Source: an uncultured virus (IMG/VR IMGVR_UViG_3300030339_000017) (Duplodnaviria > Heunggongvirae > Uroviricota > Caudoviricetes). Taken from it: 64,000 bases of DNA. This document shows, in pieces, positions 13,894 to 38,122 of this stretch. Where the stretch lies: IMG/VR virus record IMGVR_UViG_3300030339_000017, one strand, 5' to 3'. The notes below the pieces were generated by a model. The model made no database searches, had not been told where the DNA came from, and saw only the letters and a program-made list of their open reading frames with translations. The stretch's first letter is position 1. The number at the start of each line of letters is the position of its first letter. A program made the position numbers and the translations under genes.

Positions 13894-13982
13894 CTTTATC
13901 CTTCTTTAATACGCAGTCATTATCATATTTTGAATGCCATTTACCGCATCCTTGGCAATAACTATATTCTTTCATATATACC

Positions 13983-14009
13983 TAAACGTAATAAGTACTA
14001 TATTTGTTT
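13983..14009 (-). promoter_or_regulatory. Putative ECF-type late promoter (AAC-N17-CGTTT)
   Basis: Minus strand AAACaaatatagtacttattaCGTTTA. Confidence 0.55.
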
Positions 14010-14012
14010 TAA

Positions 14013-14261
14013 CTAATAGTCCCATTCTTTACTATTATCTCTAATATTATCTAGAGCAATCTTAGTGGTTTCATTCTGTATGGATATCTTATCGTAAAAT
14101 GTGCTTGAATTACTTGTTTTAAGCTCTTCTAATGATACTTTACTATTTAGTCTATACTTTCTCTTATTTATCTTTATAGGTCTCTTATACTCAAGCCTAG
14201 ACCACTCCCATTCACTCCTGGTTATCCATTGCATCTTCTTCTTTATACATTGTAACTGCAT
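14013..14261 (-). CDS. Hypothetical protein
   Basis: 82 aa ORF. Confidence 0.45.
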   Translation of the reverse strand: MQLQCIKKKMQWITRSEWEWSRLEYKRPIKINKRKYRLNSKVSLEELKTSNSSTFYDKISIQNETTKIALDNIRDNSKEWDY

Positions 14262-14560
14262 ATAGTATCTATTTATGTATTAAACACAATAATCCCCTTG
14301 AGAACTGGTCCATACCTCAGTTTGGCTTTCTAGGTCTTTTATTCATATCTGTACGTCCCTTTCGGTACACCCACACGCTTATCTCACTCTCCCCTCATTA
14401 GATACACATTCCTAAGAATAGTAACCCGCGCCATATGTTTTATTAATCTATTTGATACTACCGGAGAAAACTCATCACTTAAGCAACTACAATCCGATGT
14501 CTAACCCTTCTGCTTTCGCCCTCTGGGTGTGTTAGGTTGGGAAACCTAGTATCAACACCT

Positions 14561-14587
14561 ATAACGTAATAACTTCAAAAAGGTTTA
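14561..14587 (-). promoter_or_regulatory. Putative ECF-type late promoter at head of minus-strand region
   Basis: Minus strand TAAACctttttgaagttattaCGTTAT. Confidence 0.65.
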
Positions 14588-14632
14588 CACTAAAATGAAA
14601 ATTTTTTGAAAATAATTTAAAATAGTCCAAAT

Positions 14633-14740
14633 GTATGAGACCGTGAAACAAAATTTTTTGGTAAATTTAGAAAGTTGAGAGGATATACGAGAGCGTGAAA
14701 CTATTTTTTCAAACACCCCGTATGTATGAGCATGCGAAAC
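14633..14740. repeat. Three imperfect 17-bp direct repeats at the strand switch
   Basis: gtatgagaccgtgaaac (14633), atacgagagcgtgaaac (14685), gtatgagcatgcgaaac (14724). Confidence 0.65.
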
Positions 14741-14748
14741 TGTATTGT

Positions 14749-14808
14749 TCAAGCCCCCGGTATAGAAATTTAGCGGGAAACACCCCCGTCAACCTGCCGA
14801 AGTACAAT
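14749..14808 (+). promoter_or_regulatory. Two copies of putative early promoter motif
   Basis: TCAAGCCCCCGGTATAGA (14749), TCAACCTGCCGAAGTACA (14789). Confidence 0.5.
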
Positions 14809-15002
14809 CGAGAAGGCAATTCAATCCTCTATTATGTCGTGATGACATTCTTTTCCCCAATTGCGTTGCAGTGGTGAGTACGTCTTGTGTTGAAGCACTT
14901 AGATATCAGTTAGGAGACTGATAAGACTGGAAAGCCACTGCGTATCCTACTCAAGGGTATCAAATAGGCTAGAATTGGATTGCTTTTAAGTATTGTATGT
15001 AA

Positions 15003-15022
15003 TCAAGCTACCGATATAAATA
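15003..15022 (+). promoter_or_regulatory. Putative early promoter motif
   Basis: TCAAGCTACCGATATAAATA upstream of ORF 15099. Confidence 0.55.
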
Positions 15023-15098
15023 CGTAGAGTGAAAAACTCACGCGAGCGCGTAAGGACAGTATATAATCAACTAATATTAACAACTAATCATTATCAAA

Positions 15099-15449
15099 AT
15101 GAAGACATTCAACAGAGTAGACTGCATTAAGTGGTCAGTAATTGGCCTTATTCTAGGCTTATCAATCATATTGGCTACGTCGTGTAGCAGTCCTTCTCGT
15201 CAAAGAGCAGAACAAATTGCCAAACAATCTGCAGTAATTTCCGATACTATTCCACAGGATACTGTATGGCAATGCAGTGTAACTGGGTATAATGAAGGTG
15301 AGTTTGTCATTCAAAGGCCTAACATTTATTACAAATGCGGTTCTATTGAGTGTTTAAAGGCACTTGATAAAATATCCAAGGACTTCTATGTATCATGTGA
15401 TTCAGTAGTCATATATAAGCAGCAAATAACCTTATTAGACTACAATTAA
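15099..15449 (+). CDS. Putative lipoprotein
   Basis: Hydrophobic signal ending in LATSC lipobox. Confidence 0.6.
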   Translation: MKTFNRVDCIKWSVIGLILGLSIILATSCSSPSRQRAEQIAKQSAVISDTIPQDTVWQCSVTGYNEGEFVIQRPNIYYKCGSIECLKALDKISKDFYVSCDSVVIYKQQITLLDYN

Positions 15450-15568
15450 CTCATAGTATTTAACAGATAATTACTGTTCATACTTATTCTCCTAATACAG
15501 TAGCTCGGGTGGTCATTCTTCCCCTCGCTACTAAGAGTAAACATTAACAATAACTAACTATTATCAAA

Positions 15569-15757
15569 ATGGCAAAAATAACATTAAACAGTAAAAATGA
15601 AACTGAAATTACACTTTCGCAGAGAGAAGCTGCTGAATTAATAGACGTAATGACTCTTTACAAATTAAACTGCAACATAGTACGTAATCCGGAATTAATC
15701 CCAGTGGACCACTTTATATTTTGTCTGGCCGAAGTTCAATTAGACAAAGTATACTAA
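15569..15757 (+). CDS. Hypothetical protein
   Basis: 62 aa, TTATCAAAATG start context. Confidence 0.6.
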   Translation: MAKITLNSKNETEITLSQREAAELIDVMTLYKLNCNIVRNPELIPVDHFIFCLAEVQLDKVY

Positions 15758-15961
15758 CAAATTAAGTTATGAAAGAGTTCTTATCGTTATGCTTCACTAT
15801 AGCACTAATCATAATGGCGTTATGGGTAATTGGTAAAGACGTTATTAATCGTTTAAAACACTAATCATGGAAGACTATTATGATTCAGATATCACTGCAT
15901 TGCAGTACGATTTATTGTGTAGAATGCCTCAAAAGAGGATGTATTGACAGGTTGTTATCAG

Positions 15962-16013
15962 GCTGCAGGGATTTGCTCACTGGGTGAATTACTGCAGCTA
16001 GAGCCTTTTTTTT
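15962..16013 (+). terminator. Putative intrinsic terminator
   Basis: gctgcag...ctgcagc stem followed by a T run. Confidence 0.5.
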
Positions 16014-16019
16014 GGTTAA

Positions 16020-16039
16020 TCAAGCCACCGTTGTAGATA
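16020..16039 (+). promoter_or_regulatory. Putative early promoter motif
   Basis: TCAAGCCACCGTTGTAGATA just after terminator, upstream of ORF 16107. Confidence 0.55.
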
Positions 16040-16106
16040 GTTGCGGGGAGAGAAAGACTTCCATTAAACCCTTTATATAGTATTCACATTTAAAAACAAA
16101 CTCGTT

Positions 16107-16544
16107 ATGAAATTTCAAATTATCAGTGCCAAGGTAGCACAAGTAACAAAAGCAGGAGCCAATTTTGGCAAAGAATATATTGATGCAGTAGTTATTCCAG
16201 ACTCAATGTTTATGAGCGCAGAACACCGCACAATGATATTCCCAACATCGGCACAAATGACGGCATGGAAAGCTCAGATTGATGCAATCAATTCTGGTTC
16301 TCCAATGGCTTATCCTGCAAAGTATGTTGTTGTTAAGGTTAAAACTCCTTATCAAATCGTTCGCGAAGGTAAATTATTGCCTAATGTACACACAGAAATG
16401 CGTGTATTGGTTATGGTCGATCCTGAGACCAGTGAAGCAATTGAATCAGCAGATGGTATTGCAGCACAGACAATCAGTAATATGATTGCCAATAAGACCA
16501 TAGTTGCAGCACAGATTGATGCAGCTCCAATGGTAACTGCATAA
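16107..16544 (+). CDS. Hypothetical protein
   Basis: 145 aa ORF. Confidence 0.7.
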   Translation: MKFQIISAKVAQVTKAGANFGKEYIDAVVIPDSMFMSAEHRTMIFPTSAQMTAWKAQIDAINSGSPMAYPAKYVVVKVKTPYQIVREGKLLPNVHTEMRVLVMVDPETSEAIESADGIAAQTISNMIANKTIVAAQIDAAPMVTA

Positions 16545-16931
16545 AGATGCAATAGTGTTGACATAGTATGATGAATAAAGGATTAGTAAAGTATGTATAG
16601 TCAGTTGACCAAGAGGTTAGGCCACGATTATACTGCCTACTAATCCTTTACTTTGTTGTGTAGCACGTGGATTTGCTCAAATGGCAGCGATTAACGAGTA
16701 AAGTGTATTAATTAGCCTAAAAATAGGGTAAAATAGAGTAAAATTAGTGGGTGAAATAAGGTTGAAATAGGGTGACTATCTTGTTCTACCCTCTATCTAA
16801 CACTCTAAAAATACCTATACTTATATCATTAGTGTATTATATGGCCTTATAACGCATTTTAAGCCCTTTTAAGACACTTTAATCTAAAAGTAATACAAAC
16901 TATTAATCAATAATGAATAACACTTAAAACC

Positions 16932-17162
16932 ATGTCAACAGAGTTAGGCAAGTTAAAGGGGAAAATAGAAATCCCAGTTCCAGGAAGGATGGAAGTAACC
17001 TATATGGATACAGAGGTATCTTTAAATAGATTCTGGGGAGGTACAGAGAGAGGCGTTTCACTACAATTGATAGTTGAAAATGAAGCACATAGGTTTTCTT
17101 ATGTTCAACTATCAGAATACGAAGTTAAAATACTAAAGGATATATTAAACGAATACTTTTAA
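16932..17162 (+). CDS. Hypothetical phage protein
   Basis: 76 aa, RFWGG..RG..LQL. Confidence 0.65.
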   Translation: MSTELGKLKGKIEIPVPGRMEVTYMDTEVSLNRFWGGTERGVSLQLIVENEAHRFSYVQLSEYEVKILKDILNEYF

Positions 17163-17173
17163 ATCAATTAAAA

Positions 17174-17416
17174 ATGGCAAAAGAACTAGTGACAGTTCCA
17201 ATGGGGACTACAAAATTCAAAGGCTATGATAAGCCTAGATTTACAAAATCAAAAACATACAGACAAGAAATAAAGATTGGAAACGGCTCAGAAGATGCAA
17301 CATTGCTTGGTGAAAAAAGACAATTCATAGAAATATGTAGTAATTGTCACATGCCTTGGGGCGAACATATAGAAATTAGCAGCTGTCCAGAGCATCAAAT
17401 CATTAAATTCACTTAA
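17174..17416 (+). CDS. Hypothetical protein with CxxC..H..C
   Basis: CSNCHMPWGEH...CP. Confidence 0.6.
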   Translation: MAKELVTVPMGTTKFKGYDKPRFTKSKTYRQEIKIGNGSEDATLLGEKRQFIEICSNCHMPWGEHIEISSCPEHQIIKFT

Positions 17417-17427
17417 TCATAATCAAT

Positions 17428-17691
17428 ATGGCAAAGAAAAAAAAAGATACGTTCCAACTTCTACCATTGGAATATCTATTAAAGATAGGTAGAATAAAGA
17501 AAGCGCCACATGGAGGGTATCAAAGCAAAGATACAGGGATATGTATTCCAGAACAAATGCAACAAGACTGGAAAAATTCAATAGGGAAGGATATAAAGAT
17601 ATTTACAGAAAAGAAATACTCTTATTTATCAACTAAAGATAATGAAACATTCAAATGGTGGCATATAGAGAAAAAATGGTGTAAACCATAG
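17428..17691 (+). CDS. Hypothetical protein
   Basis: 87 aa ORF. Confidence 0.6.
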   Translation: MAKKKKDTFQLLPLEYLLKIGRIKKAPHGGYQSKDTGICIPEQMQQDWKNSIGKDIKIFTEKKYSYLSTKDNETFKWWHIEKKWCKP

Positions 17692-18205
17692 ATTTTATAG
17701 TTAGTAATAACTTTAAGATAACAAATAAAAATAATAGAATTATGTATTATCATCGTGATACATAGTTAAATATGCCCGCGTGAACTCAAGCGATATAAAA
17801 TGCATAATAAAACGATGAATAATACATAAAAATGCATAAGTTTGGGATGAGGGGGCCCTATTTAAAAAACTTAATAACTTCACAAGTCATTGAGTGCACC
17901 AGTTTCTACACAGTCAAGAAGGATGATTCCTAAGCCTTATGATAAAATTAATTTTGGCGGTTGAAATTCCGAAGATAATGTATAGTTTTAGGTGTAAAAT
18001 GCAATCCAATTTCATATGAAAAGACCGTTTTATTTAATGTCTCGAAAGCGTTTGAGATAGAGCAGACAGATAGTATAGACTGTCAAAAATAAAGGGGTGA
18101 AGATAGTAAGTCTACAAATCGTCGAATTAAATACGTGTAGCATTAGAACTTCACCCCGTTTTTAAAGAACAAAAACTAATTAATAATAATCAATATTATA
18201 AACAA

Positions 18206-18784
18206 ATGAAAAAATCTAAATGGATATTTCTTCAAATATCATTGTTATTAGTATTAATAGTGATGGTTTATGCCACATTTAAACAAGATTCAAATATAGA
18301 ACTATATCGGAATCAAAGAAATAAAGTCGAGGCAAGAATAAATTGGAATGGCTTAAATTACAGCAAAACAGCAACTCAAGAAGCTGCAGATATTGAACCA
18401 ATGGATCAGGTAAAAGATTTTAGTTATAGCTATAATCAAACTTTTAATAAAACAAATGATATACAAAGTAATATAAATAATTATTCAGATAATATGCAAT
18501 CATACAGACATGATGTAGAACAAGAATCTAATGATTATAATCAATTGCCTTTTGTATATAATTTAAGTAATAATAAAAAACAGGATCAATTGGTAAAGTA
18601 CGTGCCATTTGGCAATACTACAACACTATCTGAATCAGTTGATAATTCAACAAAGCAGGATTGCCATCCAATATGGCCTCCATGTCCACCTCCAAAAACA
18701 GTGCCAGTTGGAGATTGTTTAGGTGTAATGACAATTTTATTAGCAATTTACATTTCATTCAAATTTAAATCATTATCAAAATGA
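18206..18784 (+). CDS. Exported protein with PID-CTERM-like C-terminal sorting signal
   Basis: N-terminal signal/TM; PPCPPP linker, VPVGD, TM helix, basic tail. Confidence 0.55.
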   Translation: MKKSKWIFLQISLLLVLIVMVYATFKQDSNIELYRNQRNKVEARINWNGLNYSKTATQEAADIEPMDQVKDFSYSYNQTFNKTNDIQSNINNYSDNMQSYRHDVEQESNDYNQLPFVYNLSNNKKQDQLVKYVPFGNTTTLSESVDNSTKQDCHPIWPPCPPPKTVPVGDCLGVMTILLAIYISFKFKSLSK

Positions 18785-19965
18785 AAAAGAAACTATTAAC
18801 AATATTGTTTTTAATTGTATCACTTAGCTTGATTGCTAATGATAATACGCATTCAAAGTGGAATCTATCTGTAGAGGCAGGTTTAAATCGATTCGATGGA
18901 GACATTAATCAACCGTTGATTAATACATTTCCGGCTTCTATATGGAATCTAACAAGTGGATTAAATATAGAATACAAACTTACAGAAGTATGGGGTATAA
19001 GTATATCTGGGTATTATATACCAATAAAAGCAGATACATACTTAAATAATATACAGAAAGAAGTTCGAACTAAAATATCTGCAAGCAGTTTAAATACTAC
19101 TATAGACTTTACACATTTAATATTTCCATATTCGAAATCAAAGTTAACAGTTAATGGATCAGTAGGATTGGGATATGCATTCTATGTATATAATACGACA
19201 CCAAAGATGACTGCAAATGATATTAACTTTATATTATCCCCATCAAAAGGAATAAGCCCTGAGTTTCCAGTGTTAGATACATATGGAAATGCATTTACAT
19301 TACCAGTATCATTATATGCAAAGTATAATCTATCAAAATATTTTGATATTGGAATTAAAACTACATACATATGTTTTAATAAGGATAATTTAGAAGGAAT
19401 TTGGACATATAAAGGAGTAACGAATGATGGTATAGGATTAGCTACATTATTCGTAAGTTATAAATTCAACCCAATAGAGTATTCTGATAAGCCAATTGAT
19501 TTAAGTTCTAAAGTCAATAAGTTAAATTACGATTTAAAGAATCTTAATAAACAAGTTGATAAACAGAATAAAAAGATTGATTCATTATCTGCCTATATTT
19601 TAAATAAAAAAGAGAATATAACAGAAAGAGATACAATAATTGATAATGTTTATTCTATTTACTTTGACTTTGATAAATCAAATCTTGATGACTGGGCTTT
19701 AATAACAATAAGTAAAGTAGCAAAGCAAATGATTGATAATCCAAAAGATAGAATAGTTATTGTTGGATATTGTGATTGGATGGGAACAGTTCCTTATAAT
19801 TACAATTTAAGTGACAGAAGAGTTGCAAGAGCTAAGAATGAACTAATAAATGTTTGGGGAATAAATCCAGGAAGAATAACAACTAACGGAAAAGGAAAAC
19901 TATATGACCCAAAAATGAAGTATCGTCCAAATAGACGTTGCGATTTTATATTTGGAACATTATAA
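18781..19965 (+). CDS. OmpA family outer-membrane protein
   Basis: Signal peptide, beta-barrel region, coiled coil, C-terminal IYFDFDKS...GYCDWMG...YNYNLSDRR...NRR. Confidence 0.9.
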   Translation: MKKKLLTILFLIVSLSLIANDNTHSKWNLSVEAGLNRFDGDINQPLINTFPASIWNLTSGLNIEYKLTEVWGISISGYYIPIKADTYLNNIQKEVRTKISASSLNTTIDFTHLIFPYSKSKLTVNGSVGLGYAFYVYNTTPKMTANDINFILSPSKGISPEFPVLDTYGNAFTLPVSLYAKYNLSKYFDIGIKTTYICFNKDNLEGIWTYKGVTNDGIGLATLFVSYKFNPIEYSDKPIDLSSKVNKLNYDLKNLNKQVDKQNKKIDSLSAYILNKKENITERDTIIDNVYSIYFDFDKSNLDDWALITISKVAKQMIDNPKDRIVIVGYCDWMGTVPYNYNLSDRRVARAKNELINVWGINPGRITTNGKGKLYDPKMKYRPNRRCDFIFGTL

Positions 19966-20263
19966 ATTAATAATCAATATTATGGCAAAGTATGTAAAAA
20001 CAATTAAAAAATTAAGTGATGGAACTATCGCTAAAGTAGGAATAATAGTTCGATGGGGAAGGGTGCAATATCCAAATATGGAAAATTCAGTTGGAAGAAT
20101 AGAGAAAATAAAAACTGATAAAGACAGAGAAATTGATAACGATGAAGTATTAGTTATATATCCAGATGGAGATGACTCTCGTTTATTGTCTTATCTAACT
20201 GTAGCTACTAAAGAAGAAAGGAAAATATATTATGAGCAACTCCAAATTCATTCCAAAAATTGA
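19952..20263 (+). CDS. Hypothetical protein
   Basis: ORF; real start probably the second Met (MAKYVK). Confidence 0.55.
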   Translation: MEHYKLIINIMAKYVKTIKKLSDGTIAKVGIIVRWGRVQYPNMENSVGRIEKIKTDKDREIDNDEVLVIYPDGDDSRLLSYLTVATKEERKIYYEQLQIHSKN

Positions 20264-20561
20264 CGAAGGTACATACATATGTTGGGTAAATAAAGTTCCA
20301 CATAGTGTTCCTATGTTACAAGGAGTAGACTTCATTAAATCTAAAGTAGTCGTATCTGGAATTCCACCAGAGATAATTTCAAAGGTTTTATATTTAACAC
20401 AAAACAATTAAGATGAAACGTAAAACATTTTATTACAAATTGCTATTATTTTGGTTCTTATCGATATTAGTAGCATTATTAGTTGGTGCACATAGAATTG
20501 GATTATTTGGAGACAAAGCAACGCCGAAAGTTTATTATGAACCAAAAACAAAAGAAGAAAG

Positions 20562-20873
20562 ATGAAACAGTTTAGAAACAAATTATTAGAACTTTTGATT
20601 TATAAAATGCTAGGTTATTTAATTGAATTTGGTTTATTTCCTACCAAAATGGAATTCTGGGAAGAGTCAGATGAAATTGTATGTAACATGTATTTTACAA
20701 AAAAGAAGACGAAAGAAGATGGTGTGAAAAATTACGATATCACCAAAAGCACAACTGAATTATCAGAGCCAGAAATTGCATTTAGTCAATTAATTAAAAT
20801 GCAACAAAAACATCTTCCAGGTAGAGGAGACTCTCCTAAAAGAACAAAACATTTACCAGGTTATTTGGAATAA
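20562..20873 (+). CDS. Hypothetical protein
   Basis: 103 aa ORF. Confidence 0.55.
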   Translation: MKQFRNKLLELLIYKMLGYLIEFGLFPTKMEFWEESDEIVCNMYFTKKKTKEDGVKNYDITKSTTELSEPEIAFSQLIKMQQKHLPGRGDSPKRTKHLPGYLE

Positions 20874-20891
20874 CAATTAAAAATTCAATCA

Positions 20892-21041
20892 ATGAAAAAA
20901 GTATTATTTTTATTATGCATCTCTATGATGCTATTTGCAGTATCTACTAATGTAGATGCAAGAGGACATAAATCCTCAGGTATTCATGCTTCAAAAGGAG
21001 CTGGACATCACAGTACAGGACGTACACATAAGTGTAAGTAA
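20892..21041 (+). CDS. Small secreted His/Gly/Lys-rich peptide (49 aa)
   Basis: Not in ORF track: MKKVLFLLCISMMLFAVSTNVDA-RGHKSSGIHASKGAGHHSTGRTHKCK. Confidence 0.6.
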   Translation: MKKVLFLLCISMMLFAVSTNVDARGHKSSGIHASKGAGHHSTGRTHKCK

Positions 21042-21094
21042 CAAACAAGTTAAGCTAGTTATTAAACAGCAACACTAAACTTCAAAATACGGAA

Positions 21095-22625
21095 TAAGCT
21101 TATGCAAGAACCCAATGCGATTACTAGTGAAAGGGGTGAGATTCCCCGTTAACATGTCATTTCTACTTCCAAAGGGTAGACTATCAAAGAATTATATATA
21201 GATAGAACATGGATAGGCAAAAAGGTCGAGTAGTAGAGATGTTACCATATTGTGGTATTATGACAAATCGAGAAGTAGACAGCACCTGCAAGTAGAGGTA
21301 TAACTACACGCTAAATATAGAATCTGGTACTACACTTCAGCCAGACGTTGTGAAACGAAGAGTAAGTGAGGCGAGACCAGGTGAAAAATCCTAGATATAT
21401 AACATATGTAATAAATATTTTCATGTTAATTACCGGACTTGAATAATATCTATGGAAGTTTGACGCGGCTGACCAAAAGGCATTGATAATGAGACGAAAT
21501 CTGATCTTTAGAAATATAGAAAAGAAGTGTAAGCAATTGATGTAGCGAGCTATGCGGATGGATATTATAATGGAGGTGAGAATAGGGAGAGATCCTTGAA
21601 TATTAACAATTTTCTAGAAAAATGGAGATAATCCACAGTTTAGTTGATCATTTTAGACTAAGCAAAACGTACCCGGACGTGCCGGTTTTTGGATAAACGA
21701 CCTTAAATTAGGTACCATTTAACTGCTTATCAATTTGCAAGGAAGATGCAAGTAAACTGCCGACCACGAATTAGAGTGTGAAACGGAGCAGTTCAGATGA
21801 CTACTTAGGCTGAACAAAACCACTATTCAACTACTTAGAAACTATTCGTAGTGTATAAGAGAAATGAATATCCGTATAAAGTCGGATGAGTGCTCATGTA
21901 AAATATTGAGAATGTGTGGAATTAGAACCATGGCTTTGCCAACAAATACTAATGATTGGTTAAGACTGACCCGTTTTCTAGAGATAGCTTTTGGTGAAAC
22001 TAGATGATTAGTTAAGAACTATAGAAAGCCAGATTTCGCTGGACATATTGGATAGGGTTGAAGTTCAATTGATTGGTTAAGAACCAAAAGAGATCGACTG
22101 TCTCATCTAAACAGTCCAAATCGAGTAATAATGCACAGGCTCGACAGATAGGTGACATGCTAGGCCTATAATAACAAAGCTAACCTAAGCTCAGTGAAAT
22201 GCTGGAAAGAAGGTAAGGTGGCAACCCGAATATGCATTGTCCCGTCAAAGATCTGTTTGACAAACTCCTATTCTAACTATTTTTCGCGAGACAGAAAGAA
22301 TAGTCCGTGACGTACGAAGAACGGATAATGAGTGCAGAAACATGAAAAAACAAAGCAAAAACTAGTTAGAGAAACTAGTGTGGAATTCAAGCAAAAGATA
22401 GCAAGAAGTTATCTAATCCCGTTATAGCCGGCGAATACAGAGGGGTCTGAATACCTATTAGTAATCTTGCATAGAAAGTATCACAATTACATTGTAGGCA
22501 ATGCGCCCGACATTGGATAAAAAACTCTAAGTTCAAAAGATTACTACCTAGCATGAAACGGGCTTGAACGCCGCTATCCTTATCTAAACATAAGACAAGT
22601 ATACCCTTGATTGGGATGCTAGGAA
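21095..22625 (+). ncRNA. Candidate giant structured ncRNA A (about 1.4-1.5 kb)
   Basis: No ORF of 60 aa or more; 21101-07 pairs with 22467-73 and 21119-28 with 22457-66; nested internal helices; ends just before a tRNA. Confidence 0.6.
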
Positions 22626-22635
22626 CAAATAAAAT

Positions 22636-22709
22636 TGGAGGATCATCTAATTTGGTTAGGATGTAACTCTGATAAAGTTATAAACCCGGTTCGAGGCCGG
22701 GCCCTCCAA
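22636..22709 (+). tRNA. tRNA-Ile(GAT)
   Basis: TGGAGGA/CCCTCCA acceptor (one mismatch), TAACT-CTGATAA-AGTTA, CCCGG-TTCGAGG-CCGGG; no encoded CCA. Confidence 0.8.
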
Positions 22710-22967
22710 CAAATAAAAATAAGAGTGCGTATGGAATAACAATAATTCAGGACGCAGAGCGAAAAGCCGTAAGTCGGGAGCGATATCTCATGGGTACATA
22801 TCTGAAAAATACACTCTTATTCTCTCAAAAAAATCAAGACTATGCGTATATGTCAGCCTAGAACAAGGTCGCACTTATTCGGAAGTTAATAGTAGAATGT
22901 GTTCAAATCTATTATAAACATAGAATGAAAAGATTTGTCTTGATTTTCACTTTTAAATTATAAATAT

Positions 22968-23150
22968 ATGGCAAAGAAATTAGAACAAATTAAAAGTATT
23001 ATACAATATGCAAAGAATTGTGTAAATAAAGGAAAAGAAATATATCCTTTAATCTATTATTGCGAATACAAAGAAGCTGGATGCCATTCAACTTCACATT
23101 GTCCATATTACAATATAAAATACAATAAACCAAAAAATGTCGCTACTTAA
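22968..23150 (+). CDS. Small Cys-rich hypothetical protein
   Basis: 60 aa ORF. Confidence 0.45.
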   Translation: MAKKLEQIKSIIQYAKNCVNKGKEIYPLIYYCEYKEAGCHSTSHCPYYNIKYNKPKNVAT

Positions 23151-23222
23151 TAGGATGATAGCCCTATTGAGGCAATGGAAACCAGCAATGGGTTGAAGGG
23201 TTCGAATCCCAAAAGCGGCGCA
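23138..23222 (+). ncRNA. tRNA-like element, non-canonical
   Basis: Terminal stem tgtcgct/agcggcg, GGG-TTCGAAT-CCC T-arm, 9-bp hairpin cttaatagg/cctattgag; no standard anticodon arm. Confidence 0.5.
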
Positions 23223-23459
23223 AACAAAACTCAGTCGTAAGGGATATTACGAATACCTCTAGAAGCAGATATAGGGAAGCTTCTTTCAAAAAGATATAAA
23301 CATTTAATAATCAATATAAAATGAGTAAAACTTTAAGATTAAGAACGAAAGAATATCAGGGTGTTCCTGAATCAGATGTAAAATCATTACGGAAAAATGG
23401 TGCAATTCGCAAGCAAACAAAGATGACACCATATCAACCAAATAAAGAAAGGATTTGAT

Positions 23460-23834
23460 ATGGAATGGACAAAAGAGGCATTAAATAGAACGGCCATCCA
23501 AATAAAAAATATGGCCCATGGAAAAAGAATTCTTAAATTTTACAAATCGTATGGATTTGATACAAATGGATTCTTATCTTCAATTCCAAGTGTAAAAAAC
23601 CGATATTATTGTGTTGCTTACGGAAAAGTATTATATGGAACAAACCCAATAGGATTTGAAATTATCAAACTCCCTACAAAACCTCGTCGTAAATTTCCAC
23701 GAGAAATGATGATATCTAATGACAAAGAAAACTGGCAATCTTTCCCAGTAGAAGGAAAGTTCAAAAGAAAATTCCTAGTATACGTAGGATGGGGAGAATA
23801 CAAAGCATGGGAATATGCAAAAGAAATTGATTAG
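23460..23834 (+). CDS. Hypothetical phage protein
   Basis: 124 aa; FPREMMISND...WEYAKEI. Confidence 0.65.
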   Translation: MEWTKEALNRTAIQIKNMAHGKRILKFYKSYGFDTNGFLSSIPSVKNRYYCVAYGKVLYGTNPIGFEIIKLPTKPRRKFPREMMISNDKENWQSFPVEGKFKRKFLVYVGWGEYKAWEYAKEID

Positions 23835-23976
23835 TTCTCGCCAGGATTAATCAAAAGGTGGAACTGTTTGGTCTTACCATGCCAAATAGCCCTGGGGTAT
23901 CTAGAATCGTGATTAGTCGTGAAATAGGTACCCCTTTATCAGAATTTAATTTATTAATCAATAATAATTTACAAAA

Positions 23977-24510
23977 ATGAGAAAAACAATAAATAATGAA
24001 TTAATTAGGAAATTTAATCCTTGCTACGATCCAAAAGAGATAATAAAAAACGAAAAAGAATACTTAAAAATATCAAAATGGATTTCTAAGTATAGAGCAA
24101 AAGTCAAAAAACCAAATGAAATTATTTGGCTATTATGTAGAGGAGAATTTATGTCAGATAAAGATATGAGATTATTTGCCGTATGGTGCGCAAGAGAAGC
24201 AATTAAATCTCAAAAATTAGTAGATGAAAGAAGTTTGAACGCAATAGATATTGCAGAAAAATTTGCAAATGGAGAAGCCTCAGTAGAAAATTTATCAGCA
24301 GCAAGGTCAGCAGCAAGGTCAGCAGCATGGTCAGCAAGGTCAGCAGCAGGTGCAGCAGCAGAGGCAGCAGCATGTGCAGCAGCATGTGCAGCAGCATGTG
24401 CAGCAGCAAGTGCAGCAGCATGTGCAGCAGCATGTGCAGCAGCATGTGCAGCAGCAAGTGCAGCAGCAATTGAAAAACAAATAGATAAATTGATAACATA
24501 TTTTTATTAA
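23977..24510 (+). CDS. Phage protein with Ala-rich tetrapeptide repeats
   Basis: RLFAVWCAR...AIDIAEKFANGEAS then AARS/AAAC repeats. Confidence 0.75.
   Translation: MRKTINNELIRKFNPCYDPKEIIKNEKEYLKISKWISKYRAKVKKPNEIIWLLCRGEFMSDKDMRLFAVWCAREAIKSQKLVDERSLNAIDIAEKFANGEASVENLSAARSAARSAAWSARSAAGAAAEAAACAAACAAACAAASAAACAAACAAACAAASAAAIEKQIDKLITYFY
24296..24468 (+). repeat. 12-bp coding tandem repeat (gcagcagcatgt / tcagcagcaagg)
   Basis: About 14 units encoding AAAC/SAAR. Confidence 0.9.
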
Positions 24511-24535
24511 ACTTCAATTAAAACTTATTATCAAA

Positions 24536-25027
24536 ATGAATGATGTAGAAAAAGAGATTTGTCTTGAGTTGATAACTCATGCAAATAACAAAACAGAAGT
24601 AAAAAATGTAATGAATGAAACATTCAAAGCATTAAACAAAAAAGAATTGAATGTATTTATAAATGAAAGTTGGAAAAAAAGAAAACTGACAAGTAAGATA
24701 TCAATGTCTAATCTAGAATATAGAGAGAAAAGAGATTTATTGCAATCGCTACTTATTAAAAAAGCGTTTGGAGAAATTAAGCATATTTATGTAACAATAA
24801 ACAAGTGCTTAAGCAAAGATACTCCATTCGATATGTATAAGTCAATGATTGGAACTGGTAATCTTTATGTTCAAAGGAGGGAATTACAAAGAGGATCTGA
24901 AGTAGAGTTATTGAGATTCGATGAAAATGGAATCAAAATTCTAGTTGAAGATCTAAATTGGAAAGGATATGAATTCTATTTCTTAGTGTACGATATTAAT
25001 TGTCGTAATTACATAAGAATAGAATAA
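24536..25027 (+). CDS. Hypothetical protein
   Basis: 163 aa ORF. Confidence 0.65.
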   Translation: MNDVEKEICLELITHANNKTEVKNVMNETFKALNKKELNVFINESWKKRKLTSKISMSNLEYREKRDLLQSLLIKKAFGEIKHIYVTINKCLSKDTPFDMYKSMIGTGNLYVQRRELQRGSEVELLRFDENGIKILVEDLNWKGYEFYFLVYDINCRNYIRIE

Positions 25028-25030
25028 AGA

Positions 25031-25097
25031 AGTACGGCCCGCTAGGTCGTTTGATTCGTCAGGAAGACCGGGCTAGCATATGCCCGCACCTCCACCA
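25031..25097 (+). ncRNA. ssrA: Permuted tmRNA, acceptor piece
   Basis: GAA-GAC, T-arm CGGGC/GCCCG, then CACCTCC-A-CCA; pairs with GGGGGTG at 25203 giving G3:U70. Confidence 0.8.
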
Positions 25098-25100
25098 AAA

Positions 25101-25189
25101 CTATCATGTAATACGTAATGGCAAAATCGATTATGTCATCCATAGCAATATGGTTGTATCGTTGCGGGTTTGAGTCCCGCCATGGTAGC
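25101..25189 (+). ncRNA. tRNA-like element in the tmRNA intervening segment
   Basis: 8-bp CTATCATG/CATGGTAG stem, T-arm GCGGG-TTTGAGT-CCCGC, central arm ending in ccata-GCAA-tatgg; no clear anticodon. Confidence 0.65.
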
Positions 25190-25202
25190 ATTAAATTAAT
25201 AC

Positions 25203-25357
25203 GGGGGTGACCAGCATTGATTCGGACAAGATGATAACGAATAGGACTGCACAATGTCTATAACAGGCAATAAAACAATCCAAATCAACAACTACGTAGG
25301 CCTTGTAGCCTAATAGCCTAGAATGTACCTATCAGGCACGTGAGCAAATGCCGCACG
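25203..25357 (+). ncRNA. ssrA: Permuted tmRNA, coding piece; tag (A)GNKTIQINNYVGLVA
   Basis: 5' GGGGGTGACCAGCATTGA; ATAACA-GGC resume context at 25266; TAA TAG stops from 25311; terminal pseudoknot ggca/tgcc plus cgtg/cacg. Confidence 0.8.
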
Positions 25358-25367
25358 TTATATTCAA

Positions 25368-26102
25368 TTGTTACCTGATAGGGTTTTATTATTAATCAAT
25401 AGTAATATGGGAAAAGAACCAAGAGAATTTATTAAAAACCTAGAAATAGGAAAGACTTATATACTAGTTTGGTTTGATTTCATATTTATTGGAATATTGA
25501 AAGATAAAACCTGGAGAAATGAGTCCTATGAAGTGCTAGTTTTCGAAAGTGAACAGCAATACATATCAAATAGAAATGAAGTATCAAAAATGCTTCATAA
25601 AGAAGGAGGTAAAACTCAATTATATTGCACTAATTCTATTATATTCGAAAATAATATAATAGATGGAAAGTACTATGATTGGTTTATGTCAAAAATGAAG
25701 TCAGTAAATATCAGTAAAGTTAATGGCAAAAATACTATAGTCAATACAGGAATAGCAAAAAGTATGATTATAAAGGATTTATCAAAGATTTTACAGAGAA
25801 GAGAACTGTCTTTATTTGAAGATATATTAAATAGTAAAGGCGTTATACTAGTCCAAAACTATCAAAAAAAATACAGAGACATCGTTTCGTCTCAAGAAGA
25901 CCAAATGCCATTTAATGTAGAATTTCCAATTAAAAAATGCGAAATGTATCCAGAATTAGATGCAGAAGTAGAATTAACCATCAATGGACAAACAATGTCT
26001 TCATCAATGAAATATGCTCATGAGTTTTTTAACGAATGGAAAGGACATATTAATGCTGGATTAGTAATTTTTAAAATGAAAAAATTATGCCAAAAAAAAT
26101 AA
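25368..26102 (+). CDS. Hypothetical protein
   Basis: ORF; real start probably at MGKEPR. Confidence 0.65.
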   Translation: MLPDRVLLLINSNMGKEPREFIKNLEIGKTYILVWFDFIFIGILKDKTWRNESYEVLVFESEQQYISNRNEVSKMLHKEGGKTQLYCTNSIIFENNIIDGKYYDWFMSKMKSVNISKVNGKNTIVNTGIAKSMIIKDLSKILQRRELSLFEDILNSKGVILVQNYQKKYRDIVSSQEDQMPFNVEFPIKKCEMYPELDAEVELTINGQTMSSSMKYAHEFFNEWKGHINAGLVIFKMKKLCQKK

Positions 26103-26204
26103 AAAAAACAATAAGCTCCGAAACTGCAATATTAGATGATAAAAGTTATTTAGTATTTCATAATTGGAAAAAAGAAGCCAAATTGAAATGGAGGTTCTGT
26201 AAAA

Positions 26205-26729
26205 TTGATTGACATAGGATTTATAGGTGATCCTCATTTTGGACATGAGGCAATAGCAAATATTCGTGGCTTTACTGATATTGATAAATACAATCAAGAA
26301 GTAATCTATCGAATTAATTCGGTATTACATAAACGGTCATTACTTTATTTAATGGGAGATATTACAATGGAAAATTCAAAGTGGTATCATTTATTAGATG
26401 AAATAAAAGCAAGAATTGTAGTTATTGGAGGAAATCACGACTTAAGAAAAGATTTTCCAGAACTAATGAAACATGTAGAAGCCGTAATAGGGACTCTAAA
26501 ATATCATGGAGCTATTTTTACGCATATACCAATTCATACTCAGGAAGTAAACAGATTTTTATTTAATGCTCATGCTCATACGCACGAAGAATTAATAAAA
26601 AGATGGGCTTATGAGGCTGGTGGATATACGGCAAGGGAAGAAATAGATAAAAGATATACATGTCTTAGTTGGGATAGACTCGAGGGCATACCTTGGTCTT
26701 GGGAACAAATACTAAATAGTAGAAAATAA
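26205..26729 (+). CDS. Calcineurin-like metallophosphoesterase
   Basis: GDPHFGH, MGD, GNHD, THIP, HAHTH. Confidence 0.9.
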   Translation: MIDIGFIGDPHFGHEAIANIRGFTDIDKYNQEVIYRINSVLHKRSLLYLMGDITMENSKWYHLLDEIKARIVVIGGNHDLRKDFPELMKHVEAVIGTLKYHGAIFTHIPIHTQEVNRFLFNAHAHTHEELIKRWAYEAGGYTAREEIDKRYTCLSWDRLEGIPWSWEQILNSRK

Positions 26730-26745
26730 TTTAAAATCATATCAA

Positions 26746-27000
26746 ATGAATGAAATCAAAGTAAAAGAGATTTACAAGATAAAGGCGTTAGTAGAAAGGC
26801 TATTAGCTATTCCTGACAAAAAGATTGTAAGAACCAAGAAAGTAAAAAAGTTGGTTAAATTAAGATCCGGTAAAACGATATTGCGAATTCAAAAAAAGCA
26901 ATATACAGTGTTACAGGCACTGGGGAAAAAGCAAAATCAGCTTTTAGAAAGAAAGCAAGAACAATTGAAACAGTTGAAAATTGAATTAAAAATCTCGTAA
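26746..27000 (+). CDS. Basic hypothetical protein
   Basis: 84 aa, Lys-rich. Confidence 0.6.
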   Translation: MNEIKVKEIYKIKALVERLLAIPDKKIVRTKKVKKLVKLRSGKTILRIQKKQYTVLQALGKKQNQLLERKQEQLKQLKIELKIS

Positions 27001-27014
27001 AAACCACTATCAAA

Positions 27015-27140
27015 ATGAGCAAAACATTGAAGCAAAAAAGAATCTTGAAAATGAAAAAATCTTTGAGAGCTTGGGTTAGAGCCGGAAAACTAGCTATAGC
27101 AAGAACAAAGGATCGCACCGGAGAAGTAAAACAAAATTAA
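27015..27140 (+). CDS. Small basic protein (41 aa)
   Basis: MSKTLKQKRILKMKKSLRAWVRAGKLAIARTKDRTGEVKQN; TATCAAAATG start context. Confidence 0.55.
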   Translation: MSKTLKQKRILKMKKSLRAWVRAGKLAIARTKDRTGEVKQN

Positions 27141-27154
27141 ATTCAATTATCAAA

Positions 27155-27403
27155 ATGAGCAAAGTAAAATGTAAACGCGCAATTAGAAGAGTTGCAAACA
27201 GATCAAAAGTAATTGAACTTATTGAAGTTGGATTACCATTTGCCAGTAAAAAATCAATTACAAAAGGAGCGAATCCTTCTCAAGATGATAAAGACATGGT
27301 AAAATTACTGAAATCGGAAGGAAAATCCGTTACAGAAGCATGGAAGATAGTTCGTACGTCGAACTACAAAATCAAAAAAGAGTTGAAAAAGAAAGCGGCC
27401 TAA
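27155..27403 (+). CDS. Basic hypothetical protein
   Basis: 82 aa, TTATCAAAATG start. Confidence 0.65.
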   Translation: MSKVKCKRAIRRVANRSKVIELIEVGLPFASKKSITKGANPSQDDKDMVKLLKSEGKSVTEAWKIVRTSNYKIKKELKKKAA

Positions 27404-27444
27404 AACGCATTTTAAAGCCCGCTAGAGCATTTAATCTAGCAACT

Positions 27445-27518
27445 GGACCGATAATTCAACTGAATAGAATCGTGCCCTTCTATGGCGCTTGTTGGGGGTT
27501 TGAGTCCCTCTCGGTTCA
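27445..27518 (+). tRNA. tRNA-Arg(TCT)
   Basis: GGACCGA/TCGGTTC, ATTC/GAAT D-stem, GTGCC-CTTCTAT-GGCGC, GGGGG-TTTGAGT-CCCTC. Confidence 0.88.
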
Positions 27519-27533
27519 CTAAATTAATTTAAT

Positions 27534-28001
27534 ATGAAAATATCATTCGATTTTGATGGTACACTTTCAAGGAGAGACGTACAAGAGTATGCAAAAGAAC
27601 TTATATTGTTAGGAATGGAAATATATGTAGTTACAAGCAGATATCAATATTTAAATAGAGAAGATGGATTGTCAGTAGATAATTCAGATCTATGGGAAAT
27701 AGTAAATGAACTCGGTATCAAACCTAAAAACCTGGTATTTACAGAAATGAAATGGAAATCAGAATTCTTTAAAGATAATAATGAATTTGCATTTCATTTA
27801 GATGATTATTATTCAGAATTAATAAGAATACAAAAAGCATCAAAAGTTCCAGCTATTTCTGTAAATGGAAATTGGAAGAAAAAATGCAATAAGGCAATTA
27901 AAAATTATAAATCAAAACCAAATAAAGTAATTAATTATGAGGAAAAGATTAAAAACGGCTTTCACATTTATGTGGATAAAAGAAAGGTCGTTTCAGAATA
28001 G
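27534..28001 (+). CDS. HAD-superfamily hydrolase
   Basis: ISFDFDGTL, VVTSR, K, HLDD. Confidence 0.8.
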   Translation: MKISFDFDGTLSRRDVQEYAKELILLGMEIYVVTSRYQYLNREDGLSVDNSDLWEIVNELGIKPKNLVFTEMKWKSEFFKDNNEFAFHLDDYYSELIRIQKASKVPAISVNGNWKKKCNKAIKNYKSKPNKVINYEEKIKNGFHIYVDKRKVVSE

Positions 28002-28161
28002 CCGTATACTGAAATAGAAGGGAGTATAGTAAGAAATTAACTACATTCCTACAAGATAAAACAAAAGTGTCACCTGCAGGCGAAGTTGTTACGGAGTCGG
28101 GGTCCCCTAAAAGACATAGATTAATCACTCGGGGTTGTGATTTTTCATTAAACTTAAAATT

Positions 28162-28707
28162 ATGAACACAAAAGAGGCAATAGAACTTGCTAAGGTGGGT
28201 TCAGAAAAAGCATTTACATACCTATATAATACGTATCATAAAGTAATTTATAGTAATATTTATTATATAGTAAAAAACAAAGATGTAGCTGATGATTTAT
28301 TATCAGAGACATTTTTAAAAGCGTTCAAGAATATAGATAAATTCACAAAAGATATTTCATTTGAAATGTGGTTAAAAACCATAGCTAATAATCATAGTAT
28401 TGACTTTATTCGTAGTATAAATAAAGAACAAAACAATGTTTATGTAGATGATGATTTACTAAAAGAATTTATCTATACAGATAATAGCAATCCTGAAAAG
28501 GAATTGATCAAGAAAGAAGAATATGGTAGGTTTGAACGAGGATTAGTAAGCCTTAGCAAGAAACAAGAAGAGGTATTAAGATGTAGATATAATGACAATA
28601 TGTCCTATAAGGAAATAGCTGAAAAATTAAATCTAAGTATTGGTACAATTAAACATTATATTCATCGTTACAAAAATAAATTAATTACAAATATTAACAA
28701 CCAGTAA
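28162..28707 (+). CDS. ECF-type RNA polymerase sigma factor
   Basis: Region 2 (AF..LY...ADDLLSETFLKAF...FEMWLKTIANNHSIDFIR) and region 4 (LSKKQEEVL...MSYKEIAEKLNLSIGTIK). Confidence 0.93.
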   Translation: MNTKEAIELAKVGSEKAFTYLYNTYHKVIYSNIYYIVKNKDVADDLLSETFLKAFKNIDKFTKDISFEMWLKTIANNHSIDFIRSINKEQNNVYVDDDLLKEFIYTDNSNPEKELIKKEEYGRFERGLVSLSKKQEEVLRCRYNDNMSYKEIAEKLNLSIGTIKHYIHRYKNKLITNINNQ

Positions 28708-28718
28708 AACAAAACAAA

Positions 28719-29123
28719 ATGAAAACAAGACATCAAATCTTAGTTATTGGAGCGAAATTCGTTTCTTTGACTCTTTTTGCAGCTTTATTGGGGGTAGGAT
28801 CTGGAAATTTTGTAAGAAATAATCAGAAATTATTAGCTGAAGCACCAACTGTAGTTGTAGTACAGAATGAAACAGCTAAAGATCTTTCTTACATACAATT
28901 AAAAGATTCAAAATGTGTTTTGTCAAGCATCAAAACGTATACACAAAAAGAAGTAGTCATTTCTACTTTTGTAACTCCACGAGAGATTGTGATGAATGCG
29001 ATAGAAGCCAGACGGCAAGACCAACGGAAAATTTCGTTGAACAACATTTATACTCCCAGAGTAACAAACACTTATTTCCCATACAAAGCAAGGGGCGACT
29101 CAATACATGTAAATACGAGTTAA
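28719..29123 (+). CDS. Membrane-anchored hypothetical protein
   Basis: N-terminal TM, directly after sigma gene. Confidence 0.6.
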   Translation: MKTRHQILVIGAKFVSLTLFAALLGVGSGNFVRNNQKLLAEAPTVVVVQNETAKDLSYIQLKDSKCVLSSIKTYTQKEVVISTFVTPREIVMNAIEARRQDQRKISLNNIYTPRVTNTYFPYKARGDSIHVNTS

Positions 29124-29211
29124 CTGACATAGAAGCAGTGAAACCCAGAGTACAAAAAAGAGTTAAATTATTTTCAAACAATTATCAAAATTAAAAAAGG
29201 AGGTAAATAAA

Positions 29212-30213: not shown

Positions 30214-30256
30214 ATTAGGATTTCGACAGTGTAATCAATACATAAAAATAATCAAA

Positions 30257-30661: not shown

Positions 30662-30664
30662 ATC

Positions 30665-31021: not shown

Positions 31022-31024
31022 AAT

Positions 31025-38118: not shown

Positions 38119-38122
38119 AATT

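Follow-up and report, generated by a model that had tools for sequence, protein, structure and literature searches.

A putative family of large, modular non-coding RNAs encoded by crAss-like phages of peat and permafrost

The stretch of DNA analysed here (64,000 nucleotides (nt) of IMG/VR record IMGVR_UViG_3300030339_000017; hereafter the window, to which all coordinates refer) belongs to a crAss-like phage, with genes for a portal protein, a large terminase, a primase, a DnaB-like helicase and two proteins of 1865 and 3569 amino acids. Between positions 20874 and 22967 it contains no open reading frame (ORF) of at least 60 amino acids on either strand; at 2,094 nt, this is the longest such gap of the window. 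The region considered here, 21095-22625, occupies the centre of this gap and is followed by a gene for tRNA-Ile. An initial annotation, made from the letters of the DNA, had proposed that the region encodes a structured RNA of about 1.5 kb. The analysis described below makes it probable that the segment from around 21126 to 22327, on the plus strand, encodes a non-coding structured RNA of an undescribed family, present in a small clade of crAss-like phages from peat and permafrost. In the window phage the family RNA would be about 1.2 kb long, from the start of the first block shared with one related phage (21126) to the end of the last block shared with another (22327).

The absence of genes from the region is real, and it is independent of the genetic code assumed. 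Reading TAG, TGA and TAA as sense codons, singly or in pairs (including TAG as glutamine, TGA as tryptophan and TAA as glutamine), opens no frame, and every frame of the region contains at least three copies of each stop codon. The eight stop-to-stop frames of the region gave only matches below the curated cut-offs when compared with Pfam and PHROG. A 47-residue ORF at 21864-22007 is frame-shifted by a natural exchange of 65 for 100 nt, described below. The initial annotation, which had noted some 1.6 kb with no ORF, was right in this respect, and the coding signal under another code that it had named as a refutation did not appear.

Homologous sequences were found in two related phages. A portal protein query identified 40 relatives in IMG/VR, and a BLAST search of the region against records of these portal relatives led to G005, whose portal protein is 70% identical at the amino acid level. 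The G005 contig begins inside a diverged copy of the RNA, on the expected strand and side. Seven collinear blocks, 73-82% identical, are shared by G005 and the window, separated by unalignable segments of lengths that are similar in some cases and very different in others; one hairpin and one motif are each invariant over 19 nt. A final scan of IMG/VR with 16 nt of the invariant hairpin yielded a third lineage, V3, in which the copy is identical in three records. V3 aligns with the window over 21410-21609 (71% identity), 21789-21886 (84%) and 22267-22327 (80%). Its primase is 58% identical in amino acid sequence and lies 19.7 kb downstream of the RNA, the same as in the window; the locus is therefore syntenic. 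The order and orientation of the blocks are strictly collinear in all three lineages, and the ORFs directly flanking the RNA are unrelated among the three phages, bar one weak match (35% over 54 residues). The V3 core has no plus-strand ORF of at least 40 amino acids, except for the last bases of an upstream ORF of 122 residues, and the G005 copy has none of at least 70 amino acids on the strand of the RNA, the longest being a 66-residue TTG frame over its first bases. The shared core measures around 564 nt in V3, compared with the 1.2 kb or so of the window copy. The giant size that had caught attention is thus not supported as a family trait, the additional length of the window copy being made up of lineage-specific insertions. 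Outside the core, the window copy has 97 nt (21725-21821) inserted with respect to G005, three copies of the module containing the motif UGAUURGUUAAGA, a module that exists in forms of 65 and 100 nt, and a 5' extension that is absent in V3. The parts of the RNA are listed in Table 1.

Table 1. Parts of the RNA and its 3' neighbourhood (window coordinates)
Feature	Coordinates	Strand	Remarks
Block B0	21126-21147	+	18/22 identical to L086rc 778-799 (G005); absent in V3
Block B1	21151-21184	+	77% identical to G005; invariant AACAUGUCA, then hairpin 21164-21169/21175-21180
Domain II	21417-21612	+	71% identical to V3 over 206 nt; start of the core common to the three lineages
Blocks B3 and B4	21636-21669 and 21698-21724 (together 21636-21724)	+	82% and 78% identical to G005; shared with G005 only
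Central domain	21789-21887	+	84% identical to V3, 73% to G005
Swappable peripheral module	21887-21951	+	65 nt exchanged for 100 nt in X15 and X16 RNA contigs
UGAUURGUUAAGA(AY) motif, three copies	21953-21965, 22005-22019, 22070-22085 (region 21953-22085)	+	
Two adjacent hairpins with variable loops	22096-22101/22111-22116 and 22121-22125/22140-22144 (region 22096-22144)	+	
3' block	22267-22327	+	80% identical to V3 over 61 nt; long hairpin and terminal hairpin
Window-specific spacer	22328-22635	+	Lower RNA depth; no similarity in V3; interval between RNA and tRNA
tRNA-Ile(GAT)	22636-22710	+	ARAGORN; Rfam tRNA 43.5 bits; neighbour, not a conserved part of the family locus

In the shared blocks, helices are kept by compensating substitutions. 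In the central domain, 25 pairs are formed in 98.6% of 69 cells of the alignment, and five of these pairs are changed on both sides; shuffles show 1.9 ± 1.0 double changes (1 of 500 reaches five) and slid partners 0-1. The domain consists of a hairpin (21791-21796/21810-21815), a 13-bp bulged helix (21824-21837/21856-21870) around a small, variable hairpin, and the invariant hairpin AUCCG-UAUAAAGU-CGGAU at 21870-21887. Three of the double changes are in the bulged helix; the small apical hairpin reads ACUA/UAGU in the window and GCAU/AUGC in V3, and in the GTTCAG/CTGAAC hairpin a G-C pair is replaced by U-A in V3. Domain II has 38 pairs, with 91.2% of 114 cells paired and seven pairs changed on both sides (a count reached by 3 of 500 shuffles, with 0-2 in slid controls). 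Within it are block B2, the conserved GAAUAUUAAC and, as its best helix, ATAATATCT/GGATATTAT, extended to 11 bp (21443-21453/21558-21568). It also contains the hairpin AGGGA-GAGA-UCCUU (21584-21597), whose four-base loop keeps the form G-N-R-A (GNRA), being GAGA in the window phage and GAAA in V3. On the opposite strand, the invariant U-G and G-U pairs of the central domain and domain II helices would become A-C mismatches; together with the GNRA tetraloops, these pairs identify the plus strand as that of the RNA. All helices supported by covariation are local or medium-range, joining segments up to about 125 nt apart.

Outside these two domains, the conserved structure is made up of smaller elements. 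Block B0, which contains the hairpin GGGG-UGAGAUU-CCCC and in G005 starts 5 nt after the stop codon of the upstream ORF, is likely to be the 5' limit of the family RNA in the window phage. The hairpin of block B1 is shared with G005 only, keeps its loop CCAAA and has two of its six pairs changed on both sides. Between blocks B3 and B4 the window has a hairpin of its own, CCGG-ACGUG-CCGG, and at the position of these blocks V3 has a shorter, unalignable segment. The motif UGAUURGUUAAGA(AY), present three times in the window, occurs once each in V3 and G005; as read from the alignment, the R and Y of UGAUURGUUAAGAAY covary in four of the five copies, being A and U twice and G and C twice. In the two adjacent hairpins at 22096-22144, all six strain-variant sites (substitutions and indels in RNA contigs) are in the loops, at 22102, 22104 (two alleles), 22108, 22127 and 22131, and none affects the 22 stem positions. 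In the 3' block, the closing helix of the long hairpin changes from CUAUUCU/AGAAUAG to CUAUUAU/AUGAUAG in V3, with one pair altered on both sides and another on one side only. The terminal hairpin, UCCGU-GACGUACGAAGA-ACGGA (22304-22325), shows only G-U-compatible changes (G-C to G-U and U-A to U-G).

All eight helices proposed from the single sequence have their strands at the positions given for them in the initial annotation, but the relatives treat them differently. Two of the eight, ATAATATCT/GGATATTAT and GTTCAG/CTGAAC, show compensatory changes in the homologs, as described above. The GGGG/CCCC hairpin is weakly kept in G005, and CCTAGCAT/ATGCTAGG is located in the window-specific spacer. 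At least two are contradicted: pairing of TTAACATG (21149) with CATGTTAA (21422) is interrupted in G005 by two mismatches without compensation, and V3 has no counterpart of its 5' arm, while TCTACTTC/GAAGTAGA overlaps the covarying local hairpin at 21164-21180 and its partner strand is not kept in G005. The two helices thought to close the molecule are considered below.

The region is transcribed in natural communities. At least 24 sequencing runs from peat or permafrost contain the stretch, six of these being metatranscriptomes, and contigs of three RNA runs (X12, X15 and X16) and one DNA run (X9) were placed on positions 13001-33000. In all three RNA runs, the deepest contigs of these 20 kb fall in the region: 21199-22311 in X12 (1169 nt, depth 72.4), 21454-22285 in X15 (depth 18.9) and 21524-22215 in X16 (depth 15.3), while phage-gene contigs listed for these runs elsewhere have depths of 2-6. 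Judged from contigs rather than reads, the segment from about 21176 to 22311 is covered at 3 to 30 times the depth of the genes on either side in each of the three; the DNA run is flat, with depths of 1-10. Transcription of the RNA goes together with that of the early/replication gene block, and its level is far higher than that of neighbouring mRNAs. No spliced joint across the region was seen in the RNA contigs. Segments 20770-21175 and beyond 22420 have no RNA-contig cover, an absence that proves nothing. The main proposal of the initial annotation, a large non-coding RNA gene in this region, is supported by its transcription and by covariation in related crAss-like phages; no coding frame, compensatory structure in three lineages and a transcript represented by contigs are what is generally expected of a structured non-coding RNA gene.

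At position 22311 the X12 contig passes directly into sequencing-adapter letters, which we take to be those of the Illumina read-2 adapter; many fragments therefore end exactly there. If the library was dUTP-stranded, as we presume, the adapter marks the 3' end of a plus-sense RNA. Most molecules have a discrete end at around 22311, in the loop of the conserved 3'-terminal hairpin; cleavage or processing would explain it. Lower-depth cover continues past this point in RNA contigs 22186-22419 (depth 9.6) and 22261-22411 (depth 2.6), so that a minority of molecules read on through the phage-specific spacer, probably toward tRNA-Ile. RNA contigs of relatives diverge after 22324 and 22327. In X15 and X16, the 65 nt at 21887-21951 are replaced by 100 other letters between collinear flanks. 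Loose-end letters of X16 at 22003 and 22327 correspond, on comparison by eye, to L096 2072-2093 and 2229-2258 of V3, next to shared blocks, and the RNA of V3 is therefore also present in RNA. Downstream of the V3 RNA there are about 430 nt of GC-rich, apparently non-coding sequence (L096 2229-2660), unrelated to the spacer of the window, of which at least the first 39 nt are present in the same RNA run.

Folding energies of the window copy tell a different story. The minimum free energy (MFE) of 21326-22325 has a z-score of -0.24 on the plus strand (6 of 20 shuffles fold as well) and -0.03 on the minus strand, ten sub-domains of the region range from +0.32 to -1.25, and its 200-nt windows fold no better than the flanking genes. 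In the same test, the first 1000 nt of Escherichia coli 16S rRNA and the group I intron located elsewhere in the window reach -2.43 and -2.49. Complementary 8-mer pairs in 21095-22625 number 28, against 20.9 ± 5.5 in 200 dinucleotide shuffles (22 of which reach 28), and 7-, 9- and 10-mers are likewise not above shuffles. Of 12 strain-variant sites compared with the single-sequence MFE fold, seven or eight are unpaired, two are kept as G-U pairs and two break a pair. The initial annotation had named folding no better than shuffled controls as grounds for giving up its proposal; this is what is found for the window sequence alone, yet the homologs show covariation. The compact core of V3 (568 nt) has a z-score of -2.14 (2 of 100 shuffles as good), similar to the positive controls, so the flat signal of the window copy most likely reflects dilution by lineage-specific insertions. 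A real structured RNA can escape single-sequence folding energy in this way.

Several points weigh against a structured RNA gene at this locus. The window copy, whole or in any of its ten sub-domains, folds no better than shuffles. The RNA evidence consists of assembled contigs with one depth figure each, not of reads, and the runs were selected because they hold the stretch. The RNA libraries are flagged as no proof of transcription and may contain DNA, and the depth comparison within them is with the phage genes around the region. Contig ends may be assembly breaks at strain variants; the 5' end of the RNA is not defined by the contigs, and in X15 and X16 the depth over 21315-21490 is only 2.5-4.3. 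The RNA contigs also show large non-homologous replacements or deletions (21887-21951, and a possible skip of 22216-22296), so much of the length of the RNA is dispensable. There are only three lineages, one of them (G005) cut off by the end of its contig, so that few events underlie the covariation counts. For domain II, RNAalifold predicted the structure from the very alignment on which it was then scored, a bias in its favour; the 5' strand of the domain can also pair otherwise (UGUUAAU/AUUAACA plus the GNRA hairpin) with about as good a fit. Finally, BLAST and an RNA model found no homolog in 38 of the 40 other portal-relative records, four of which are rated at least 90% complete; the two remaining matches (E-values 0.19 and 0.57) look like chance.

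Four other explanations were weighed against this reading. The original model, a single RNA of about 1.5 kb (21095-22625) held by two closing terminal helices and with a 3' end set by processing of tRNA-Ile, is very unlikely to be correct. The closing helices are present in the sequence and are retained when 21095-22480 is folded, in the MFE structure as well as in the centroid. RNA contigs of low depth extend to 22419, and a read-through precursor is plausible because the tRNA is on the same strand. However, the arms of these helices (21101-21128 and 22457-22473) lie outside both the conserved blocks and the high-depth RNA contigs; V3 has neither arm, while G005 differs in the 5' arm and its contig ends before the 3' arm could be read. 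The 3' arm also has a perfect local partner of 10 bp at 22537-22546, used in the MFE fold of the spacer (22328-22635 folds locally, z-score -2.12, with helix 22459-22468/22537-22546), and complementary 10-mers like the closing arms are expected by chance (2 observed, 1.5 in shuffles). The high-depth contig stops at 22311, next to adapter letters and 325 nt before the tRNA, and no tRNA is found within 2 kb of the V3 copy; neither a 3' end set by tRNA processing nor a conserved tRNA link is supported. A row of small independent elements (hairpin modules, small RNAs, or cis-regulatory leaders of the downstream tRNA or genes), co-assembled into one contig, would agree with the modular architecture, in which insertions, duplications and swaps occur between conserved blocks, with the lack of the entire 5' part of the window RNA in V3, and with covariation that involves local or medium-range helices rather than any long-range helix joining domains. 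A contig spanning several elements is also no proof of a single transcript. On the other hand, one RNA contig covers 21199-22311 at uniform high depth, the blocks are strictly collinear in three lineages, and internal signals for separate units do not stand out: promoter-like sites in the region number 14 for 12.1 expected, not above shuffles, and there is no terminator-like site on the plus strand. Separate elements are judged unlikely.

A DNA element was also considered, either a replication origin or a protein-binding region in which UGAUURGUUAAGA would be iteron- or operator-like and the RNA a primer or activating transcript. The three partly palindromic sites of 13-16 nt, spaced by 52 and 65 bp, or about five and six helical turns, invite such a reading, and so do the location of an ORF-free region within the replication/early block and the purine-rich RNA. 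But V3 and G005 have one copy of the motif each and thus no array, the region is GC-richer than its flanks (0.37-0.41 versus about 0.27-0.30) rather than AT-richer, and GC skew shows no turn there. The compensatory changes, with their G-U pairs on one strand, indicate that pairing in the RNA is under selection. The DNA element is given very little probability. The same small weight is given to the view that this is a hypervariable accessory region of decayed genes or of transcribed spacer that has no function. Strains differ in the region by large replacements and indels, flanking ORFs turn over completely between lineages, the assemblies of two records break inside it and the window copy has no energy signal; yet blocks 71-84% identical in nucleotides persist where neighbouring protein genes are unrecognisable, helices are kept through double changes, some hairpins show no change over 19 nt although the portal proteins of the lineages are only 70% identical, and the RNA is abundant. 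A structured RNA gene at about 21126-22327 accounts for these observations best, and is the reading retained in what follows.

The RNA has no match among known families. At gathering thresholds, Rfam 15 finds in the whole window only the tRNA and a distant group I intron; at E ≤ 10, only the tRNA and two chance-level matches are found in 20800-23100, and at E ≤ 1 the V3 and G005 loci give a single chance match to a snoRNA. Rfam 15 presumably includes GOLLD, ROOL, OLE, HEARO and raiA. No Rfam family is thus matched by the window, V3 or G005. Group I introns have a conserved P3-P8 catalytic core and lie within a host gene; such an intron is rejected, since its model, which scores 80.2 bits at 37713-37951, has no match in the region and there are no flanking exons. 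Group II introns have a D1-D4 core and domains V and VI, and boundaries of the form 5' GUGYG and 3' AY; no Rfam match appears at E ≤ 10, and the 3' hairpin (5-6 bp with a 12-nt loop) does not have the shape of domain V. The absence of a group I core or group II domain V, asserted from the start, therefore holds. Ribosomal RNA, considered in view of the gene order 16S-tRNA-Ile(GAU), has no Rfam match in the region, and blastn and nhmmer comparisons with the E. coli rrnH operon return chance words only. For a tRNA, a tmRNA or a decayed tRNA array, the tRNA-Ile at 22636-22710 is the sole detection by ARAGORN and Rfam; relaxed ARAGORN searches of the plus strand add nothing at ps80 and, at ps70 with introns allowed, giant-intron artefacts only. 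No description of a large non-coding RNA in crAss-like phages was found in the openly accessible literature. In PMC10690425, the candidates average 67 nt.

Searches for further copies were negative. Over 43 records, the RNA model R1 recovered its source records plus the two chance-like matches mentioned above. BLAST with the window query against 10 portal-relative records found G005 only, and with the G005 copy against 39 records nothing; many of the portal-relative records are partial sequences that stop short of the locus. In the phage collection ('phages'), blastn finds no match to the window or V3 copy. Earlier pattern scans of IMG/VR, with letters from the middle of the region or from the tRNA, returned the near-identical record G001 or nothing, because the mid-region patterns lay in lineage-specific parts. 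An 18-mer found seven loci in metagenomes, of which only L016 is real, being the same genome at 100% identity, and two scans of a prokaryotic genome collection with 20-mers gave no match and one chance match. The phosphoesterase gene of the window has no close relatives. Records G002-G004, found through a 394-residue OmpA-domain gene, were discarded as relatives; as this gene is all that they share with the window, absence of the RNA from them says nothing. One of them, G003 (a 213-kb record; L027-L037), is an unrelated large phage with 25 tRNAs in about 12 kb, one of them with anticodon TCA, and with many ORF-free gaps under translation table 11; TGA may be a sense codon in this phage. Within the RNA gene, two independent IMG/VR assemblies break off, G001 starting at window position 21698 and G005 inside its own copy. 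Such breaks fit strain-level module swaps that fragment assemblies, and the family is therefore probably under-sampled in contig collections.

Large structured phage RNAs are few and their functions unknown. GOLLD is a large ornate RNA of Lactobacillales phages and lake metagenomes, and ROOL (rumen-originating ornate large RNA) measures about 0.6 kb, is often borne by phages or prophages and often lies near tRNAs. Like GOLLD, the peat RNA is phage-encoded, several hundred nt long or more, non-coding and multi-domain, with variable peripheral modules and no known function; a tRNA adjoins the window RNA, a GOLLD-like trait, but this neighbourhood is not conserved in the peat family. Unlike GOLLD, it has no Rfam match (E ≤ 10 for the window, E ≤ 1 for the relatives), and its hosts are crAss-like phages of peat. 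With ROOL it shares the nature of a large structured RNA of unknown function and a similar size, considering the 564-nt core of V3; it differs in having no Rfam match and no shared motifs detected, and in tolerating a doubling of length by insertions. The stable RNAs C and D of phage T4 and other small stable phage RNAs are tRNA-like molecules of about 120-140 nt, co-oriented with tRNA genes and probably derived from a common precursor. The window RNA is, like C and D, non-coding, stable, and co-located and co-oriented with a phage tRNA gene, but relaxed ARAGORN finds no tRNA-like fold on its plus strand and it is 5-10 times longer. Group I and II introns are also large structured RNAs of phage genomes, and the window phage has a bona fide group I intron; the window RNA, in contrast, matches no Rfam intron model, is not inserted in a gene and shows no spliced joint in RNA contigs. 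On the basis of three lineages and contig expression data, the RNA probably represents a new family of large phage non-coding RNA; it is a member of neither GOLLD nor ROOL nor any Rfam family.

The RNA is modular. Domain II, the central domain, the hairpin with the motif UGAUURGUUAAGA and the 3'-terminal hairpin block make up a core of about 560 nt, in which lineage-specific modules are inserted, duplicated or swapped to give the window copy of about 1.2 kb. Most likely the RNA acts during infection as a stable trans-acting RNA or ribonucleoprotein, for instance as a scaffold, a decoy or possibly a catalyst. We hold this role with low confidence, and any particular function with far less confidence than the existence of an RNA gene. 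Tertiary or protein contacts could be made through the strictly conserved hairpin loops, and the end at 22311 could result from a specific cleavage, self-catalysed or by a nuclease. Large phage RNAs such as GOLLD and ROOL have reportedly been shown recently to build RNA-only assemblies. A bolder proposal, which we regard as possible but doubtful, is that this RNA founds a new class of large, modular structured RNAs that crAss-like phages express at a high level. Its invariant loops (CCAAA, UAUAAAGU and the AAG triloop motif) would then drive assembly of RNA with RNA or with protein, much as in the cages of GOLLD and ROOL, and maturation would proceed by site-specific cleavage in the conserved 3'-terminal hairpin, carried out by the RNA itself or by a nuclease dedicated to the task. 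In any case, the family adds large RNAs from a different phage group (crAss-like) and habitat (peat and permafrost), already seen as an abundant transcript in natural communities. Its compact (about 564 nt) and expanded (about 1.2 kb) forms mark core and dispensable modules for structural work, and the discrete end inside a conserved hairpin provides a concrete biochemical lead.

Other features of the region and its surroundings were recorded. The hexamer GUGA(A/G)A is enriched 19-fold over the rest of the window, and against the region's own composition the enrichment is not significant after correction for the number of k-mers. No motif common to the region and the other intergenic gaps of the window was found, and the longest antisense complementarity within the window, 14 nt, is at chance level. 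Just upstream of the RNA, 20860-21110 folds strongly (z-score -3.72, none of 200 shuffles as good), overlaps a 49-residue ORF with a signal-peptide-like start and is not abundant in the RNA runs. A perfect direct repeat of 11 nt, AACAAATAAAA, is found on either side of tRNA-Ile (22624-22634 and 22708-22718), and 21939-21953, at the edge of the swappable module, resembles the 3' end and trailer of this tRNA (13 of 15 positions); together they may be the trace of a tRNA cassette insertion.

Further downstream, the ORF at 23977-24510 (177 residues) has a GC-rich (0.46), low-complexity repeat at 24150-24600. Numerous joints and loose ends fall in this repeat in RNA and DNA runs alike, and strains differ there by a 3-nt indel; it is therefore a length-variable coding repeat. 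The same plus-strand block encodes an ECF-type sigma factor with Sigma70 regions 2 and 4 (28162-28707), a candidate for directing the middle or late promoters of the phage. The group I intron at 37713-37951 interrupts the gene for the DnaB-like helicase (related coordinates 36861-37748, 38105-38656 and 39423-40244), and a gene for a GIY-YIG-type homing endonuclease is located about 1.5 kb downstream of it.

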